A stretch of DNA of 64,000 nucleotides, taken from the sequence record NC_047754.1. One strand, 5' to 3'. The notes beneath the pieces are model-generated. The model did no database searches and had not been told where the DNA came from. It worked only from the letters and a program-made list of their open reading frames with translations. A program made the translations under genes and the position numbers. Below are positions 9,047 through 31,788 of this stretch, piece after piece; within the stretch, counting starts at the first letter, position 1, and the number at the start of each line of letters is the position of its first letter. Source of the DNA: Escherichia phage phiAPCEc03.

Positions 9047-9798
9047 TGTCAGTATTAGTAGGTTTACATGGTGAAGCTGGTTCGGGAAAAGATACCGTTG
9101 CAAAATTAATTATCGATTGGTGTAATGACACGTATCCAACGTGTTTATCACGTCGTTATAGTTTTGCTAAGCCCGTTTATGAACTTGCATCCGTAATCCT
9201 CGGTGTAACTCCAGAGTTTCTAGGAGAGCGCAGAGGAAAAGAGATTGACCAATGGTTTACGGTCACACAATCTCAATTGGAGCGAGCCAGAGATGTGTGG
9301 TTTAAGTACGGTATCGATAAGTTTGAAGACTTCTCGTACGTTTGGCCTATTTTTGAGGAAAAATATCTTAATCCTCAACAACTTATCTCAGAGAATAAAG
9401 AAGACGGACTTTATAGTTTATTTATTTCTCCGAGAAAAATGTTACAGCTCGTAGGGACAGAGCTAGGAAGGCAGCTGGTGCATGAACGCATTTGGCTCAT
9501 AATTCTGGAGCAATCCATCGCTAAAGACGACCCAGATGTCGCCGTAATAACAGATGTTAGATTCCCCAATGAAGGAGAGTTACTCAGAGAAACAAACCAT
9601 TTAGATATGGATTCTTTGATAGTAAATGTAGTACCCGCTGAGCAGAAGTTCACTATTAAATCAGATCATCCATCTGAAAGTGGTATTCCTGCAAAATATA
9701 TTACTCACGAATTAGTTAATAAATTCGATGGTATCAATAACCTTAAACTAGAAGTTTATAACTTCTGTGACTTAGAGCTAGAACCACTAGTTGGATAA
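9046..9798 (+). CDS. dnk: deoxynucleoside monophosphate kinase
   Basis: P-loop GEAGSGKDT as in T4-type dNMP kinases; 250 aa matches the size I recall for T5 dNMP kinase. Confidence 0.65.
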   Translation: MSVLVGLHGEAGSGKDTVAKLIIDWCNDTYPTCLSRRYSFAKPVYELASVILGVTPEFLGERRGKEIDQWFTVTQSQLERARDVWFKYGIDKFEDFSYVWPIFEEKYLNPQQLISENKEDGLYSLFISPRKMLQLVGTELGRQLVHERIWLIILEQSIAKDDPDVAVITDVRFPNEGELLRETNHLDMDSLIVNVVPAEQKFTIKSDHPSESGIPAKYITHELVNKFDGINNLKLEVYNFCDLELEPLVG

Positions 9799-20960: not shown

Positions 20961-21845
20961 ATGTATAACTTTAAAGATAAACTAAGACAAAATGCTGGCA
21001 AAACAAAACCTAAAGAGAACAATAATGTTCCTAATGCCAAAGTATTACCATTTCCAGAACTATCTCAAGAAGAAAAAGATAAGTTAGCATTTATGTTTGA
21101 TGCCCTTCTAGGGCTAAATGGACGTTTATACTCCTCACTCAATATTAATGAGAAACGTCTAGTAGAGATGTTCTGTAAGCGTTATCAAGTTACTTCAAAG
21201 GGTAATTCTTATAAAGAAGGTGAGAAAGCATTTACAGTCTTAAAGATTAGCGCATATGCACATCGTTTCTTAGTTTATGGGTTACAGATGGAATACTTCA
21301 CCATCCCATCATTTAGCTCTTTCCATATCTTTGAAGATGAACGAATGAATATTGATGATCTCTATGGGGATACGTACAAATACTCAGGAAGTCCATTCCA
21401 TGATGCATTAAGGAGCTACCCAACTAACTACTTACCAGTTAGGGCATCACAAGGTAAAGCTAGCATCTTCGCTGTTTACTCAGGATCTAAAGCATCGGAT
21501 CTAGAAACTTATATATTTAAAGAGCGTAAATCTGTACTTCCAGATGAAGCATTGTATAATAATCCATTGCTTCCAGAAAAAGAACCAGAGAAGATTGATG
21601 TAACCCCACCAATCCCATCTGATTCCCAGTATTTAATTTATGAGAAACAAGTTAAGTTATCCCTAGAAATTGGGTTAGTTACACCGCTTGCTGCAGCATT
21701 CATCAATAGGTATCTAGAAATTCCTGACGAGTTCCACACACGTTATAATACGAATATTCAGATAACGGATGAACTAATAGCTATTGCAAAAAGTACGCCT
21801 ACAGATACTGAGGCGTATCAAAAAGCATACCAAGAGTTACTATAA
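20961..21845 (+). CDS. hypothetical protein
   Basis: 294-aa ORF with GGAGA RBS; last gene before the repeat-rich noncoding region. Confidence 0.6.
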   Translation: MYNFKDKLRQNAGKTKPKENNNVPNAKVLPFPELSQEEKDKLAFMFDALLGLNGRLYSSLNINEKRLVEMFCKRYQVTSKGNSYKEGEKAFTVLKISAYAHRFLVYGLQMEYFTIPSFSSFHIFEDERMNIDDLYGDTYKYSGSPFHDALRSYPTNYLPVRASQGKASIFAVYSGSKASDLETYIFKERKSVLPDEALYNNPLLPEKEPEKIDVTPPIPSDSQYLIYEKQVKLSLEIGLVTPLAAAFINRYLEIPDEFHTRYNTNIQITDELIAIAKSTPTDTEAYQKAYQELL

Positions 21846-22382
21846 TATTCTGCAAGTCTCGGTGCACAATACCTGTACCGAGACAATAATACAAACTCTC
21901 GTTGACAGATAGCTAAATGTATGTTATCATAACTCTATGAGTTAATAGAATTAACCATTTAGAGTTGCCACACAGAAGGTGTGGTGGTTCAGTAATTTAA
22001 AATTACTAACTTGTAGCGGAGGATACGGAGCGACAGGACAAGTTAATAAGTAATTTAATATAAATTGCTAGAAACATCACGAGACCTTCTGGCGGGGGCA
22101 AAGCTCTATATGAGAACCCTGGGGGATCTTATATTTAAAATAAAAGTAAAACTTTTGACCACATAATTTACATTCAAGATGATACACCTGTTGCCGCTCA
22201 TCTGCTAGGATGGCACAACACTTTCTTCTAGACTCCTAAGTTTTTATGAAAACTCTAGTCAACTCAGGCGGTTTTCATTGTTCCTAGAAACTCTAGCAAT
22301 AGGCGGTTAATACAGGGCGGTTATAGGGAGGGCGGTTATTTCTAGGAGACATTTTTTGAAAACACATTTCCAGAAATTACTA

Positions 22383-22981
22383 TCGGATTTGCACATTGTG
22401 TTTCTAGAAATTTATGGTCGGATTTGCACAAACGCCTAAGTTTTCAGGAACTCTTACTCTCCTGAAAATGGCAGCATTATTTCGGGCCGAAGGCCCGTGA
22501 TTGCCTGAGTTTTTAGAGTCACAATAATTTTCACTTGTCAAGCTATTTTGCCCCATTTAGCTAATAAAATTTTACTTTATCTGCACTTATCTCAAATTAA
22601 CCCAAATCTTCTCAACTCTTCCCCAAAATCCCCGCAAATCAGGTGCTCCGCACCAAACATGCACCTCTCCCACAGTTCCCCCAAGTTTCTCTCGCTCTCT
22701 CAACTTCTCCCCAAACTCATACAATCACACACCCTCCAATCGAAGTCACAAAAATCTTGTCGGATTCGCACAAATAAACCCCTGTCGGATTTGCACATAT
22801 TCTAGCTAATTCCACAGGATTGATGCGCAGCATCGGATTGCTGTAGTTTTTAGGAAAATTCATTGTCGGATTTGCACACTATAAAAATTTTTCGGGTCGG
22901 ATTTGCACACTACTAAAAATTGTCGGATTCGCACATACACGCCCACGCGTAACACCCGTGGAGCAATGTCGGATTTGCACA
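22383..22981 (+). repeat. iteron-like array: 8 direct copies of 13-bp TCGGATTYGCACA
   Basis: Copies start at 22383, 22428, 22759, 22785, 22866, 22897, 22923 and 22969, all in the same orientation within a noncoding region. Confidence 0.85.
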
Positions 22982-23033
22982 AAAGCGCAGGGCAATTGCC
23001 CTGCCCGCCTGAATGCAAATACAAATGAGAATC

Positions 23034-23165
23034 ATTCGCATTTAAAAAGCGGAATGAGAATGATAATGATTCGCATTTAAAAAGTGAAATGAAAATTATT
23101 CAGGAAGTGAAACGATTCTCATTTAAAAAGTGGAATGCAAATGATAGTGATTCGCATTTAAGAAC
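23034..23165 (+). repeat. 4 direct copies of ATTCGCATTTAAAAAG-containing unit
   Basis: Units at about 23034, 23069, 23115 and 23150, period about 35-45 bp. Confidence 0.75.
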
Positions 23166-23191
23166 GGAAGTGAGAAACACTGTTATTTAAG

Positions 23192-23273
23192 TTATCCACA
23201 GACTTATTAACCGCATAATTTGACTTGACAGAATCCTAGCCATTTTGAGGCGTTATTAACAGACTTATCCACA
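23192..23273 (+). promoter_or_regulatory. DnaA-box-like 9-mers (TTATCCACA), two copies
   Basis: Exact TTATCCACA at 23192-23200 and 23265-23273. Confidence 0.55.
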
Positions 23274-23442
23274 GCTTATCCTACTGTATAAATATACAGT
23301 ATTCCTACGCAGTGAATAATTCTAATATAGTCCTAAAACGTCCTAGATCGCATTCTAACGCGTTTAATTTTGGTGGGGATACTAAAACAAGGGGTTATCC
23401 GGTTGCAGGCGTGAAAAACGGGGATCTGCTCCCCGCTTGTTG

Positions 23443-23637
23443 TCAGTCCGGTAATTGATGCGTGATCTTCTCCTCCTCCCCGTAGGAATCGACCAAATGT
23501 TGATAGTAACCATCGGCATCATAAATAACGCTATCATACTCGCCACGCTCGACCGCTTGCCGGTTTTCCGGCGTATCGGGCACGTAAAAAACATCAACCA
23601 TTGTACTGGTTTTAGTCACAATAATTTTATTGCTCAT
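23443..23637 (-). CDS. hypothetical small protein (pre-early-like block)
   Basis: 64-aa ORF with AGGGG RBS-like sequence. Confidence 0.5.
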   Translation of the reverse strand: MSNKIIVTKTSTMVDVFYVPDTPENRQAVERGEYDSVIYDADGYYQHLVDSYGEEEKITHQLPD

Positions 23638-23662
23638 AATAACCCCTAGTAAATATATAATT

Positions 23663-24007
23663 TCATTGTGCTACCTTTCGAAAAGCTGTTTCAATACTTT
23701 CCGCAGTTGATTGAATATACGCGCCTTTCATGATCAGGCGCTCAGTGCATATCTTACGGAAAATATTAATAAAATCATCTTCATTTTCTGCAATTAATGC
23801 TTCACCCATAACCTGAACGTCGCAAGATGCAAAGGTCAAAAATTGAAACGCTAGTTCACGGGCAACGACCGCATTGATTTTATAATGCGCCTTGCCCTCA
23901 TAAATATTAATAACGCCCTTGTAAGCTGGGGAAAGCTGGTTTAAATAGTTTGCTAGTAATGCCGGACGGCAATTAGCAACAAAGCGGTTGCCCTCATAAA
24001 TAACCAT
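23663..24007 (-). CDS. hypothetical protein
   Basis: ORF with GGGAGG RBS before internal ATG at 24007 (MVIYEGNRF); the listed ORF extends to 24022. Confidence 0.5.
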   Translation of the reverse strand: MVIYEGNRFVANCRPALLANYLNQLSPAYKGVINIYEGKAHYKINAVVARELAFQFLTFASCDVQVMGEALIAENEDDFINIFRKICTERLIMKGAYIQSTAESIETAFRKVAQ

Positions 24008-24889: not shown

Positions 24890-25123
24890 TTACTCGCTTT
24901 CGGTGCTAGTGGTAAAAGTAGAAATATCAATACCTTTCACCATTTCATCAATCATCTCAGCAATGTTAAAAGATTGCACCATTTCTAACATAGCCGCTTC
25001 CATAGCTGCACCTGCTACCGCTTTCGCCTTTTGGTTACTCGGGGCGTACTGGTCAACCGCTACACTCAGCAGGTTAGCGATCACTACCCGACCAATCGGC
25101 GTATCAATATAGCCTTTAATCAT
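24890..25123 (-). CDS. hypothetical protein
   Basis: 77-aa ORF; start overlaps the upstream stop (ATGA), suggesting coupling. Confidence 0.5.
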   Translation of the reverse strand: MIKGYIDTPIGRVVIANLLSVAVDQYAPSNQKAKAVAGAAMEAAMLEMVQSFNIAEMIDEMVKGIDISTFTTSTESE

Positions 25124-25866
25124 GAAGGGCGCTTTTTAGCCGCTACTTTCGTAATTTGAGTCAGTGCAATTTTACCCGCTTCCAGTTTTGCAGCGTTTAC
25201 AACAGCGGATTTATTAGCGGCAACGATGTTAGCAATCTTGGTCATAGTATTTTTTCCTTTATTTTCAGTAGTTTGAGCGTTAGAATTTACAGCATGTTTT
25301 TCCGTGTTGTCAATAGGCTGATCTTCATCTTTCCAGAAAGAAAAACCAGCACTTTCGATGTCGCCATCATATACATATGGGTATAGCTCCCGTGGTAGCA
25401 AAAAATTGCCATCGTCATCAAAAGCCATTACAGCCGCCAGACGATACCCGTCACCAATTGACCGATTCCAGCCAACTGATAAATAACGCCAAAATGAATC
25501 GAGAAAATTTTCAACGTCATAAAGATCATTGGGGTTGGCCCCATAGTTTTCTATTGAAAAAACTTCTAAGCCCGCCCCAGTATCATAGGCTTTTACTATA
25601 CTACCTTTTACAATTATGAAATCGGTATCCGGCCCCCTGCTAGTAAGCAGGTGATTATCTCGATTATATAAAACAAGCGTTGCCCCTTGCTTATACAGTT
25701 GCAAAAAACTACTCATATCATAGGCATCGAAATCATCAAAAAAATTTTGGTGAATATCTTCGGACTTGTTAACAAAGTGTTTAATGCTGGTTGTTCTGCT
25801 ACCATCCAGCAGGTTACGCAGCGCACCTTTTAAGACGGTTGCGTTATCTGGTTTATATAGCCTCAT
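25120..25866 (-). CDS. hypothetical protein with Ala/Lys-rich C-terminal tail
   Basis: 248-aa ORF, first gene of the minus-strand block. Confidence 0.6.
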   Translation of the reverse strand: MRLYKPDNATVLKGALRNLLDGSRTTSIKHFVNKSEDIHQNFFDDFDAYDMSSFLQLYKQGATLVLYNRDNHLLTSRGPDTDFIIVKGSIVKAYDTGAGLEVFSIENYGANPNDLYDVENFLDSFWRYLSVGWNRSIGDGYRLAAVMAFDDDGNFLLPRELYPYVYDGDIESAGFSFWKDEDQPIDNTEKHAVNSNAQTTENKGKNTMTKIANIVAANKSAVVNAAKLEAGKIALTQITKVAAKKRPS

Positions 25867-26158
25867 TTGTTCGGCCCCCTCGTTAATCGGTGAGTGAATG
25901 ATAAGGGTAATTTTCTAGCATAGGCAAAGATTATTTTACTTTTTTATTTTCCTTGCCTAACGCCTATTTTTATGCTAACCGCGCAGCGGTGTACTAAAGA
26001 GCAAAACACGGCGAAGCCACCAGGCCGTCGCATTGAGGCTTTACTTTAATATTACCTTGTAGCGTTCAGCTCGTTAGAAAGCGTTTTAGGCCGCTTAAAA
26101 TTGATTGCAGTCGTTAACACTACCTTTTTACCCTGTGTATTTATACAGTAGAATAACC

Positions 26159-27770: not shown

Positions 27771-28178
27771 ATGACTAACGTTAAAACCGCAAAATTCGCA
27801 TGGAATGAAGAAAACACTCAGAAAGCTGTTTCCATGTATCAGCAGTTAATTAATGAAAACGGTTTAGATTTCGCAAATAGAGACGGTTTAAAAGAGATTG
27901 CAAAAGCAGTTGGCGCGGCTTCCCCTGTATCCGTTCGCTCAAAATTGACCAGTGCAAAAGCCTATCAAAAAAGCGATAAGCCGCGTAAAGTTGGTGGCGG
28001 TAGCTCTGTGCGTAAAGCTCACTATGTGCGCGTTATCGCTAAACATGCTATTGATTCCGGCATTATCAAAGACGCCGACGATCTGGCAAGTCTGGAAAGT
28101 GCAAAACTTGAAACGCTGGACGCAGTAGCGCAACTGTTAGGCGTTGCCGATGAAGTAAAACAAGCCGCAGGCGAATAA
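27771..28178 (+). CDS. A2: A2-like pre-early protein (tentative)
   Basis: 135-aa ORF next to the A1-like gene; size matches what I recall for T5 A2; assignment rests on size and synteny only. Confidence 0.4.
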   Translation: MTNVKTAKFAWNEENTQKAVSMYQQLINENGLDFANRDGLKEIAKAVGAASPVSVRSKLTSAKAYQKSDKPRKVGGGSSVRKAHYVRVIAKHAIDSGIIKDADDLASLESAKLETLDAVAQLLGVADEVKQAAGE

Positions 28179-28557: not shown

Positions 28558-30228
28558 ATGATTATTTCCGCAGAAAAACAAACCGTTATCCTGAAAATGG
28601 CCGCTGACTTTAATTTCTATGGTAAACGTCTGCGCGCTACTAAACTGGAAGTCTGCGACGATATATCAAAAGCGGTCTACGATACAACGAAGCATTCAAC
28701 CGCTATCTGCGACTGGCTGGAAGCAAATAAACCAGCTAAACCGAAAGCGGCAAAAGTAGCAAAAGCCATTAAAAACGATGAGCGCCCAGAAGCGGCGGGG
28801 ATTGTTTCTAGTACGGTTGAGCAATGGGAAGTAAAACAGGGTAAACGCTTTATTATTACGTCGATTCAGAATAATACTTTCCCACATAAAAACTTTTTAG
28901 CAAGTCTGGAAAAATTCGCTGAATATATCGGTGCTGATTTGCTTGTTTCTAAGTATATTTATAATAAAAACGGCTTCCAGAATGGAGAAGGTGCAGACGG
29001 TATCAAATACGATCCCGCATTTGATAAATATATTTGCAGCAAAAACGTGTTTTTAAATAACCGCCGTTTTGCTTTCATGGCTGAAATTAATGTTTTGCCT
29101 ACCGCAGACTATCCGCTTTCAGGATTTGCAGAAACTGCAACGGCTTTAAATATTGAAGGGCTGGCAATTGGTCACGCTAAAATTACCGCTGAAAGCGTGC
29201 CAGCTTTAAAAGGTGAAGTAGTGCGCCGTATGTATTCAACCGGAACGGCAACGCTCAAAAACTACATTCAGCAGAAAGCAGGACAAAAAGCCGAGGCGCT
29301 GCATAACTTCGGTGCGCTTATAGTTGAGTTCGACGACGACGGGGAATTTTTTGTTCGCCAGCTTGAAACAATGGACGAAAGCGGGGTGTTTTATGATCTG
29401 AACGTTTGCGCTACTCCTGCCGGATGCTATGAGACATCGGGGCATGTTTTAGGCTTGCAGTATGGCGATATTCACGCCGAAAAATTAGATGAGGAGTGCG
29501 CCGCCGCATCTTGGGGGCATGGTGATACTTATGGGCTAGTAGATATTCTTAAACCAAAATATCAGTTTGTGCATGACGTTCACGATTTTACATCCCGCAA
29601 TCATCATAACCGCGCATCCGGTGTATTCCTAGCTAAACAATACGCCGCCGGACGTGATAAAGTTCTGGATGATCTTATCGATACGGGGCGCGTGCTGGAA
29701 TCAATGGAACGTGATTTTAGTCAAACAATCATTGTTGAATCTAATCACGATTTGGCGCTATCCCGTTGGCTTGATGATCGTAATGCTAACATCAAAGACG
29801 ATCCAGCAAACGCCGAGTTATATCACCGCCTGAATGCTGCAATTTACGCGGCAATCGGTGAACACGACGAAACGTTTAACGTGCTAGATTATGCGTTGCG
29901 CAAGGTTGCAGGTTGTGAATTTAACGCCATTTTCCTGACCACTGATCAATCTTTCAAGATTGCAGGCATTGAATGCGGCGTACACGGTCACAATGGCATT
30001 AACGGCAGTCGTGGCAATCCTAAACAATTTAAAAAATTGGGCAAGTTAAACACGGGGCATACCCATACCGCCAGCATTTATGGCGGCGTATATACCGCTG
30101 GCGTTGCTGGTAGTCTGGATATGGGTTACAACGTTGGCGCGTCAAGCTGGACGCAAACGCATTTAATTACCTATGCAAATGGTCAACGCACTTTGATTGA
30201 CTTTAAAAACGGTAAATTCTTTGCATAA
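28558..30228 (+). CDS. A1: A1-like pre-early protein, metallophosphoesterase-family nuclease
   Basis: 556 aa; calcineurin-like motifs GDIH, SNHD, GVHGHNG and GHTHT in canonical order; size matches T5 A1. Confidence 0.7.
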   Translation: MIISAEKQTVILKMAADFNFYGKRLRATKLEVCDDISKAVYDTTKHSTAICDWLEANKPAKPKAAKVAKAIKNDERPEAAGIVSSTVEQWEVKQGKRFIITSIQNNTFPHKNFLASLEKFAEYIGADLLVSKYIYNKNGFQNGEGADGIKYDPAFDKYICSKNVFLNNRRFAFMAEINVLPTADYPLSGFAETATALNIEGLAIGHAKITAESVPALKGEVVRRMYSTGTATLKNYIQQKAGQKAEALHNFGALIVEFDDDGEFFVRQLETMDESGVFYDLNVCATPAGCYETSGHVLGLQYGDIHAEKLDEECAAASWGHGDTYGLVDILKPKYQFVHDVHDFTSRNHHNRASGVFLAKQYAAGRDKVLDDLIDTGRVLESMERDFSQTIIVESNHDLALSRWLDDRNANIKDDPANAELYHRLNAAIYAAIGEHDETFNVLDYALRKVAGCEFNAIFLTTDQSFKIAGIECGVHGHNGINGSRGNPKQFKKLGKLNTGHTHTASIYGGVYTAGVAGSLDMGYNVGASSWTQTHLITYANGQRTLIDFKNGKFFA

Positions 30229-31053: not shown

Positions 31054-31788
31054 ATGAATCAAGTTAAAACGAATATTACCCGTAATTTCCCGCATATTTC
31101 CCGCGTCATGATTTGGGATCTGGACGGCACTATCATTAATTCTTTCCATCGTGTAGCGCTTTGCTTTGATAGTGAGGGCAATTTAGATTTAAATAAGTAT
31201 AAAAATGAAGCCTGCAAACATCATTTAATAATGCAAGATACTTTATTGCCATTAGTTGAATACATGCGCCAGTGCATGAATGACGCAAATACTTTAAACA
31301 TTATTTGCACCGCTCGACTAATGAGCAAGTCGGACTATTATTATTTGCGCAAACAAGGCTTGCGCGGTCGTGGTAATAGTAATATCCGCGTGTTTTCCCG
31401 TGATACACTGCATAAATATTTTGAGGCTGATAAAGTTAGCGAAATATACCACAGCAAGGACGCAGTATATAAATCTTATTATTTTGAATTATTCAAACAA
31501 CTATACCCAAACGCTGATTTTACAATGATTGACGATCATAAAGGCGTACTATCAGCGGCGGCATCATACGGATTTAAAACGCTGGACGCGCAAGCCGTTA
31601 ACGATATTCTATCAATCGGCGTGACATTGATAGGTGAAACCTTTATTGATGAATCCCTCGATGATGATAATGATTATCAATTCCTAGCTGACCGTTTAAA
31701 ATTATGCTGGGAAGGTATGACCGAGGAAGAACGCGCAGAATATAGTTGCAGCCCGCAACAATATATTGAGAAATTAAAAGTTGCGTAA
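31054..31788 (+). CDS. dmp: HAD-family 5-prime-deoxyribonucleotidase
   Basis: 244 aa with HAD motif I (WDLDGTI) near the N-terminus; size and position match T5 dmp. Confidence 0.6.
   Translation: MNQVKTNITRNFPHISRVMIWDLDGTIINSFHRVALCFDSEGNLDLNKYKNEACKHHLIMQDTLLPLVEYMRQCMNDANTLNIICTARLMSKSDYYYLRKQGLRGRGNSNIRVFSRDTLHKYFEADKVSEIYHSKDAVYKSYYFELFKQLYPNADFTMIDDHKGVLSAAASYGFKTLDAQAVNDILSIGVTLIGETFIDESLDDDNDYQFLADRLKLCWEGMTEEERAEYSCSPQQYIEKLKVA

Follow-up and report, generated by a model that had tools for sequence, protein, structure and literature searches.

Candidate operators for the host Fur repressor in the repeat array of the T5-like injection-stop region

How phage T5 halts once 8% of its genome is injected has been asked since the 1960s, and the injection-stop (iss) region was sequenced in 1987. 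The T5 repeats, the DRE repeats among them, were reportedly described by Heusterspreute (1987), Wang (2005) and Davison (2015 and 2020). In the T5 literature, the region that holds these repeats is treated as a candidate injection-stop signal. In the Davison preprint, the array is named Repeat Region 3 and the function of its repeats is said to be such that it 'cannot be guessed', while the shear point calculated there for first-step transfer in T5, at about 9618, falls inside the block homologous to the array described here. According to a 2023 paper on phage BF23, experimental studies of iss sites are lacking (PMC10644984).

The array analysed in this work lies in a 64,000-nucleotide stretch of a T5-like phage (the window, meaning the whole of that stretch), which runs in reverse complement to the standard T5 map. 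The array aligns with T5 AY587007 9468-9637, annotated as 'direct repeat C copies 1-4' together with palindromes E-I, and an alignment to T5 9319-9699 gives a mean column identity of 87% with a single 23-bp indel. The alignment thus shows that the array is homologous to the T5 'direct repeat C / palindromes E-I' block. It resembles the T5 DRC/DRE array (Repeat Region 3) in its homologous sequence, in its neighbours and in its place in the terminal repeat, and differs in being one 23-bp unit shorter, within a family whose members have 2 to 8 units. Since the T5 annotation covers the homologous block, we count the array as an already described element, known and named in T5-like phages; the reading of its units as Fur-binding sites appears to be new.

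Organization and conservation of the array

The earlier note had described four copies of a repeat, one of them with a G-to-T change, and this was borne out, as the 16-mer ATTCGCATTTAAAAAG with up to two mismatches matches exactly four times in the 64-kb window, always on the + strand, against a chance expectation of 0.15 on average and with none of 100 dinucleotide shuffles giving four matches. Repeat finders recover the same four copies, with periods of 35 and 23 bp. Successive copies are spaced by 35, 46 and 35 bp (a period of about 35-45 bp in the earlier note), but the true modules are 35 and 23 bp long. Two further details had to be corrected: the fourth copy, given as AAAAAG, reads ATTCGCATTTAAGAAC, and the array begins at about 23010 and not at 23034. 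From there it extends to 23165 and comprises five modules, three of them long, one a short 23-bp unit and one a degenerate 23-bp unit (Table 1). The 16-mers are right arms only, each belonging to an imperfect palindrome, AATGNGAAT ... ATTCNCATT, and U0 carries a 9-1-9 palindrome, AATGAGAAT-C-ATTCGCATT. The 46-bp gap between copies 2 and 3 arises because the extra degenerate unit U2 sits there, and a degenerate unit of this type is also found in other T5-like arrays. At its right-hand side, the array ends in a conserved junction that leads into the DnaA-box inverted repeat and recurs in 28 of 29 T5-like arrays; it was used there as the right-hand anchor.

Table 1. Features of the array and its flanks (window coordinates; Fur scores in bits)
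Feature	Position	Strand	Sequence	Remarks
T5 direct repeat D series	22374..22981	+	GTCGGATT(T/C)GCACA	the 'iteron array' of the earlier note
GC-rich terminator-like hairpin	22985..23004	-	GCAGGGCAATTGCCCTGC, then T-run	T5 palindrome J
Long unit U0	23010..23049		TGAATGCAAATACAAATGAGAATCATTCGCATTTAAAAAG	includes copy 1
U0 Fur-matrix hits	23015 (11.5), 23021 (15.8), 23027 (14.4)			6 bp apart
Copy 1 of 16-mer	23034-23049	+		0 mismatches
Long 35-bp unit U1	23050..23084		CGGAATGAGAATGATAATGATTCGCATTTAAAAAG	F-F-x-R-R hexamers; includes copy 2
U1 Fur-matrix hits	23050 (10.0), 23056 (13.8), 23062 (17.2)			6 bp apart
Copy 2 of 16-mer	23069-23084	+		0 mismatches
Degenerate short 23-bp unit U2	23085..23107		TGAAATGAAAATTATTCAGGAAG	TRF period 23 over 23068-23132
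Short 23-bp unit U3	23108..23130		TGAAACGATTCTCATTTAAAAAG	holds copy 3
Copy 3 of 16-mer	23115-23130	+		1 mismatch (G-to-T variant)
Long 35-bp unit U4	23131..23165		TGGAATGCAAATGATAGTGATTCGCATTTAAGAAC	holds copy 4
U4 Fur-matrix hits	23137 (12.7), 23143 (15.1)			6 bp apart
Copy 4 of 16-mer	23150-23165	+		2 mismatches
Conserved junction, partial unit	23166..23181		GAAGTGAGAAACACTG	
DnaA / DnaA-like boxes, two pairs	23192..23273	+	TTATCCACA (consensus DnaA) at 23192 and 23265; TTATTAACC at 23205; TTATTAACA at 23253	T5 IRD'-spacer-IRC' (Davison preprint)
Near-perfect LexA (SOS) box	23282..23301		TACTGTATAAATATACAGTA	T5 palindrome D

The array occupies non-coding DNA between convergent transcription units, at the terminal repeat's inner end, with the DnaA-box inverted repeat on one side and the 7.9% nick hairpin on the other. 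In T5 orientation, the order is the pre-early genes with their terminators, palindrome D, the DnaA-box inverted repeat (IRD'-spacer-IRC'), the array, the palindrome J hairpin with the major 7.9% nick, and the direct repeat D (DRD) series. The hairpin at palindrome J lies 6 bp away from the first unit of the array and overlaps the sequence homologous to major nick 1 (7.9%) of T5, CCCTGCGC. The placement given earlier, between the GTCGGATTTGCACA repeats and the first DnaA boxes, was correct. As a side observation, the DRD series in the window contains at least 8 copies, and its TTTGCAC core also occurs in the corresponding repeats of Vibrio phage Ceto.

With 80-93% identity, the kilobase around the array matches 454 records of T5-like phages, and in 374 of them the match spans at least 80% of the query. 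A 191-bp core of the array is recognisable in 523 records, including phages of Klebsiella (Sugarlandvirus) and Pectobacterium (Myunavirus), and 476 of the 523 cover at least 80% of this core, so that the separate repeat family seen by the earlier note is also a conserved one. A BLAST search of the array against 5,426 E. coli genomes gave no match.

Bending, folding and architectural proteins

The proposal made in the earlier note was that phased A/T-rich repeats of this kind can bend the DNA or bind architectural proteins such as IHF, Fis or H-NS. It gains some appeal from the base composition, with 29.5% G+C in the array region as compared to 38.7% window-wide, and from the neighbouring DnaA boxes, which recall oriC, where IHF and Fis act. 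However, searches with the patterns WATCAANNNNTTR for IHF, GNNYRNNWNNYRNNC and GNNNAWWWWWTNNNC for Fis and TCGWTWAATT for H-NS found no match anywhere in 22300-23400, and the repeats are out of helical phase, which makes this proposal highly improbable. The A5 tracts lie 23, 35, 46 and 58 bp apart, corresponding to 2.19, 3.33, 4.38 and 5.52 turns; with none of these spacings in helical phase, their bends should not add up in one plane. Scans with the CRP and ArgR consensus sequences likewise gave no match within the array. In a comparison with oriC-type assemblies and plasmid iterons, the array shares with them a dense set of putative host-protein sites in non-coding DNA beside DnaA boxes, but it lacks IHF and Fis sites and its units are palindromic, unlike direct iterons of the Rep type. 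No rep gene was found adjacent to the array. According to the Davison preprint, the replication origins of T5 are located close to mid-genome, and the first-step DNA carries no replication genes.

The DNA might also act through its own structure, with the palindromes and A-tracts giving rise to hairpins, cruciforms or intrinsic bends that physically stall the DNA in the tail or the channel. Such a mechanism would suit the many imperfect palindromes (T5 palindromes E-I), the A5 tract found in most units and the nearness of the 7.9% nick, and single-strand folding is modestly better than in shuffled sequences (z = -2.3 and -3.1). Nevertheless, the stems are short and A/T-rich, with about -19 kcal/mol over 176 nt and no dominant structure, and the A-tracts are never spaced by whole helical turns. 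Furthermore, viable phages have anywhere from 2 to 8 units while a Fur-like core stays constant, and we regard this structural explanation as quite unlikely. An Rfam search of 21800-23700 returned nothing credible.

Resemblance of the units to Fur operators

For a 19-bp Fur matrix, 12 Fur-regulated promoters of E. coli K-12 (fepA-fes, fepD-entS, fepB-entC, fhuA, fur, tonB, cirA, fecA, fecI, fhuF, ryhB and exbB) each contributed their best site, and GATAATGATAATCATTATC served as the Fur box consensus for comparison. The 12 sites used match this consensus at 12-17 of 19 positions and obtain leave-one-out scores of 9.6-19.7 bits. The aerobactin iucA operator, employed as a held-out control, scores 20.4 bits; its sequence was confirmed 21 bp upstream of iucA on IncF plasmids. 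When the window was scanned with this matrix, 20 positions reached at least 10 bits and eight of them were located within 23015-23161, where they form three clusters with scores of 10-17.2 bits and within-cluster offsets of exactly 6 bp. Overlapping sites set 6 bp apart are what characterises clusters of Fur sites (Chen et al., PMC2189734). The units of the array match the consensus at 13-15 of 19 positions, with U1 at 15, and U0 shares the 13-mer AATGAGAATCATT with the iucA operator. The short units as a whole obtain only 6-8 bits, U2 being weak with 6.8 bits and U3 scoring 7.2 bits. Not one of 3000 dinucleotide shuffles of the array reached eight positions at or above 10 bits (mean 0.08), and three of 3000 reached the 17.2-bit maximum; these match statistics cover Fur alone, which was the first candidate recognised, and are uncorrected for multiple testing.

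Compared with the Fur operator clusters of E. coli (iucA, fhuF, fepA-fes and ryhB), the array shares GATAAT-type hexamers in the order F-F-x-R(-R), overlapping 19-bp boxes offset by 6 bp, and scores within or above the range of real sites. Two features used to recognise a Fur operator are hence present, namely at least three GATAAT-type hexamers or a 19-bp match in the footprinted range, and clusters offset by 6 or 3 bp. A third, overlap with a Fur-repressed promoter, was not found, as a sigma-70 scan gave only weak 9/12 matches. In contrast to the E. coli operators, the array does not lie over a recognisable promoter, its clusters recur every 23-46 bp, and it carries GCGAAT/ATTCGC outer hexamers and a conserved TTTAARAAG tail. 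Because it is placed between convergent units without a convincing promoter, the use of Fur boxes here would be atypical. The best consensus match in the window is found elsewhere, at 31660-31684 (17 of 19 positions; 17.6 and 18.9 bits), and is probably a codon by-product, since it lies inside a 244-aa ORF (31054-31788) and encodes DDDNDY with its Asp and Asn codons.

Among other members of the Fur family, Zur was also considered, with the Zur box taken to be GAAATGTTATANTATAACATTTC. This box shares with the units of the array the 21-bp length of the palindrome and the AAATG...CATTT outer arms, but the inner five bases of the two differ (AGAAT against TTATA). By a hand count over the 9-1-9 core, each half-site agrees with Fur at 8 of 9 positions and with Zur at only 5 of 9.

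A wider sample was obtained by scanning IMG/VR for the neighbouring DRD motif, which yielded 64 loci, and at every T5-like locus among them the densest cluster of Fur hits lies 45-255 bp from a DRD copy. One locus, on a contig of a giant-virus MAG (L018), was set aside, as its cluster of Fur hits is merely A/T-rich low-complexity DNA. The 29 distinct T5-like arrays are 163-351 bp long with 2 to 8 units, and every one of the 29 contains three to seven Fur-like clusters with maxima of 17.2-22.9 bits; across them, 138 of 141 within-cluster gaps are exactly 6 bp. The family is built from modules of 23 bp and of 35 bp (23 + 12, two added hexamers), and the commonest unit spacings are 35, 46, 23 and 58 bp. 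The long-unit consensus, GTGGAATGCGAATGATAATGATTCTCATTTAAAAAG, shows its hexamers in F-F-x-R-R order, and the short-unit consensus is GTGGAATGATTCTCATTTAAAAAG. Between the Fur matrix and a profile built from 76 distinct long units, the correlation was r=0.73 in the + orientation (offset -13) and r=0.71 in the - orientation (offset -7), the main peaks being 6 bp apart with minor peaks at 3-bp steps, and none of 5000 column permutations matched the observed value. Per-column information in the long units also follows that of the Fur matrix (Spearman 0.61, p=0.006), and the positions that are invariant in the phage units correspond to the Fur-informative AAT and ATT triplets. T5 itself carries TGATAATGAGAATCA, in which 15 nt are identical with the iucA operator. 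Beyond the hexamers, TTTAARAAG and GTGG are conserved as well, which points to some further constraint on the units.

Taken from the sequence comparisons, the most likely explanation of the units is that they are operators for the host Fur repressor, a reading to which we give about an even chance. Within each 35-bp long unit, 25 bp would consist of consecutive Fur hexamers arranged as F-F-x-R-R, (GCGAAT)(GATAAT)-G-(ATTCGC)(ATTTAA). Such a run would amount to two overlapping 19-bp Fur boxes, 6 bp apart, and could offer room for two Fe2+-Fur dimers bound to the helix from opposite sides, with the 23-bp short units presumably acting as weaker three-hexamer sites.

Host and phage factors at the transfer boundary

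A different candidate for the protein that recognises the units, and the main rival to Fur, is encoded by the phage itself. The T5 A2 protein binds DNA and is needed, along with A1, for second-step transfer. In the window, the PHROG family matched by A2 (27771-28178) carries the annotation DNA-binding protein, and that matched by A1 (28558-30228) the annotation DNA transfer protein. The units could hence be binding sites for a pre-early protein, with A2 as the prime candidate, which would detect the paused DNA and then free or cleave it. The location of the calculated shear point at the array would suit such a function, the palindromic half-sites would suit a dimer, and the bases conserved beyond the Fur hexamers count in its favour as well. 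Further support comes from Ceto, a T5-like phage of Vibrio in which A2 has only about 42% identity: this phage keeps DRD-like ATTTGCACCTAT repeats, DnaA boxes and two LexA-like boxes, and at the position of the array (L084 12325-12420) it has a different repeat, GTCCAGATGGCTAGAAGTC, with 8-bp periodicity. No homologous Fur-like array was found at the equivalent place in Ceto or in D17, another Vibrio T5-like phage. Vibrio Fur recognises the same Fur box, and for this reason the replacement of the array in Ceto fits a phage protein that co-evolves with its site more readily than it fits Fur.

Other phages, however, speak against A2 as the binding factor. In phages of Klebsiella, the motif is unchanged although A2 is only about 65% identical. 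A palindrome of the same kind, GAATGATAATCATTCTCATTT, occurs in one to three copies, with up to 21.2 bits, in non-coding DNA of unrelated large myoviruses, namely Phapecoctavirus anhysbys, a Vequintavirus, Seunavirus PVP-SE1 and Mydovirus KB57. The A2 homologues among the matches listed come exclusively from records with the size and hosts of T5-like phages, and none of those listed is from an rV5-like or phAPEC8-like phage. In addition, a tblastn search with the terminal-repeat ORFs of the window against the first 50 kb of anhysbys gave no protein match, only the repeats themselves. The presence of the motif in unrelated myoviruses without an A2 match thus favours a factor shared by the hosts, and suggests that Fur boxes are recurrent among enterobacterial phages. 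Were A2 the binding protein, the fit to an independently derived Fur matrix and the 6-bp phasing would also have to be coincidental, and we consider the A2 explanation possible but doubtful.

On the Fur-operator reading, the array would not be the only set of host-protein sites at the boundary, as two pairs of DnaA or DnaA-like boxes and a near-perfect LexA box lie next to it (Table 1), the LexA box being present in 22 of the 29 T5-like arrays. The text of the Davison preprint contains no mention of Fur or LexA, and literature searches for Fur or LexA linked to T5 found nothing. Once the first-step DNA is in the cytoplasm, Fur could coat the last 150-350 bp to enter, and the Fur array could assemble, with the LexA box and the two DnaA-box pairs, a complex of host proteins where first-step DNA borders on second-step DNA. 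This complex may take part in the pause, and as a matter of speculation it could be a roadblock or an anchor that defines or holds the pause; it might equally protect or mark the boundary, or couple the restart of transfer to the amounts of free Fur, LexA and DnaA. Any contribution of the array to the pause in DNA transfer would agree with the published hypothesis on this region. Since Fur is a cytoplasmic protein, an extra assumption is needed if it is to act directly in halting DNA not yet out of the tail.

A broader version of this scheme regards the T5 injection-stop region as a landing pad for host LexA, DnaA and Fur, with these host proteins, and not a phage protein or a structure of the DNA, holding or marking the paused DNA. 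T5 degrades the host chromosome during the pause, and the freed Fur, LexA and DnaA could then load onto the sole remaining DNA. This idea is rather unlikely as it stands; if it were true, the restart of transfer or the protection of the boundary would be tied to the completion of host takeover or to iron status. The reading as Fur operators with a LexA box and DnaA boxes at their flank would turn a 'complicated repeat region' into a matter of named, purchasable proteins and simple host mutants, and, if true, would mean that a lytic phage employs host regulators as structural parts of its DNA-delivery programme.

Several minor observations were made on related sites. A second LexA-like box, CCCTGTGTATTTATACAGTA, lies at 26131-26150 beside an inverted copy of the DnaA-box module, about 3 kb off. 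In Ceto, an isolated strong Fur-like site, CGAAATGATAACTATTCTCATTTGC, with 18-19 bits, is found at L082 769-793 (the same as L084 12710-12734) in an intergenic gap of the pre-early operon. The rV5-like and phAPEC8-like myoviruses contain one to three Fur-like palindromes at L004 1500-1800, L079 1225-1470, L080 1190-1440 and L081 1220-1470. Here the palindrome and a promoter-like TTGAAT-N17/18-CAGAAT overlap, and about 200 nt of conserved GC-rich sequence without an Rfam match follow the palindrome; this region could be that of a Fur-repressed phage small RNA. Elsewhere in the window, on the - strand, a gene of the DUF7566 / phrog_4263 family (profile of about 336 aa) is split between 24890-25123 and 25120-25866 into overlapping ORFs of 248 and 77 aa, which suggests a frameshift, a pseudogene or a sequencing error.
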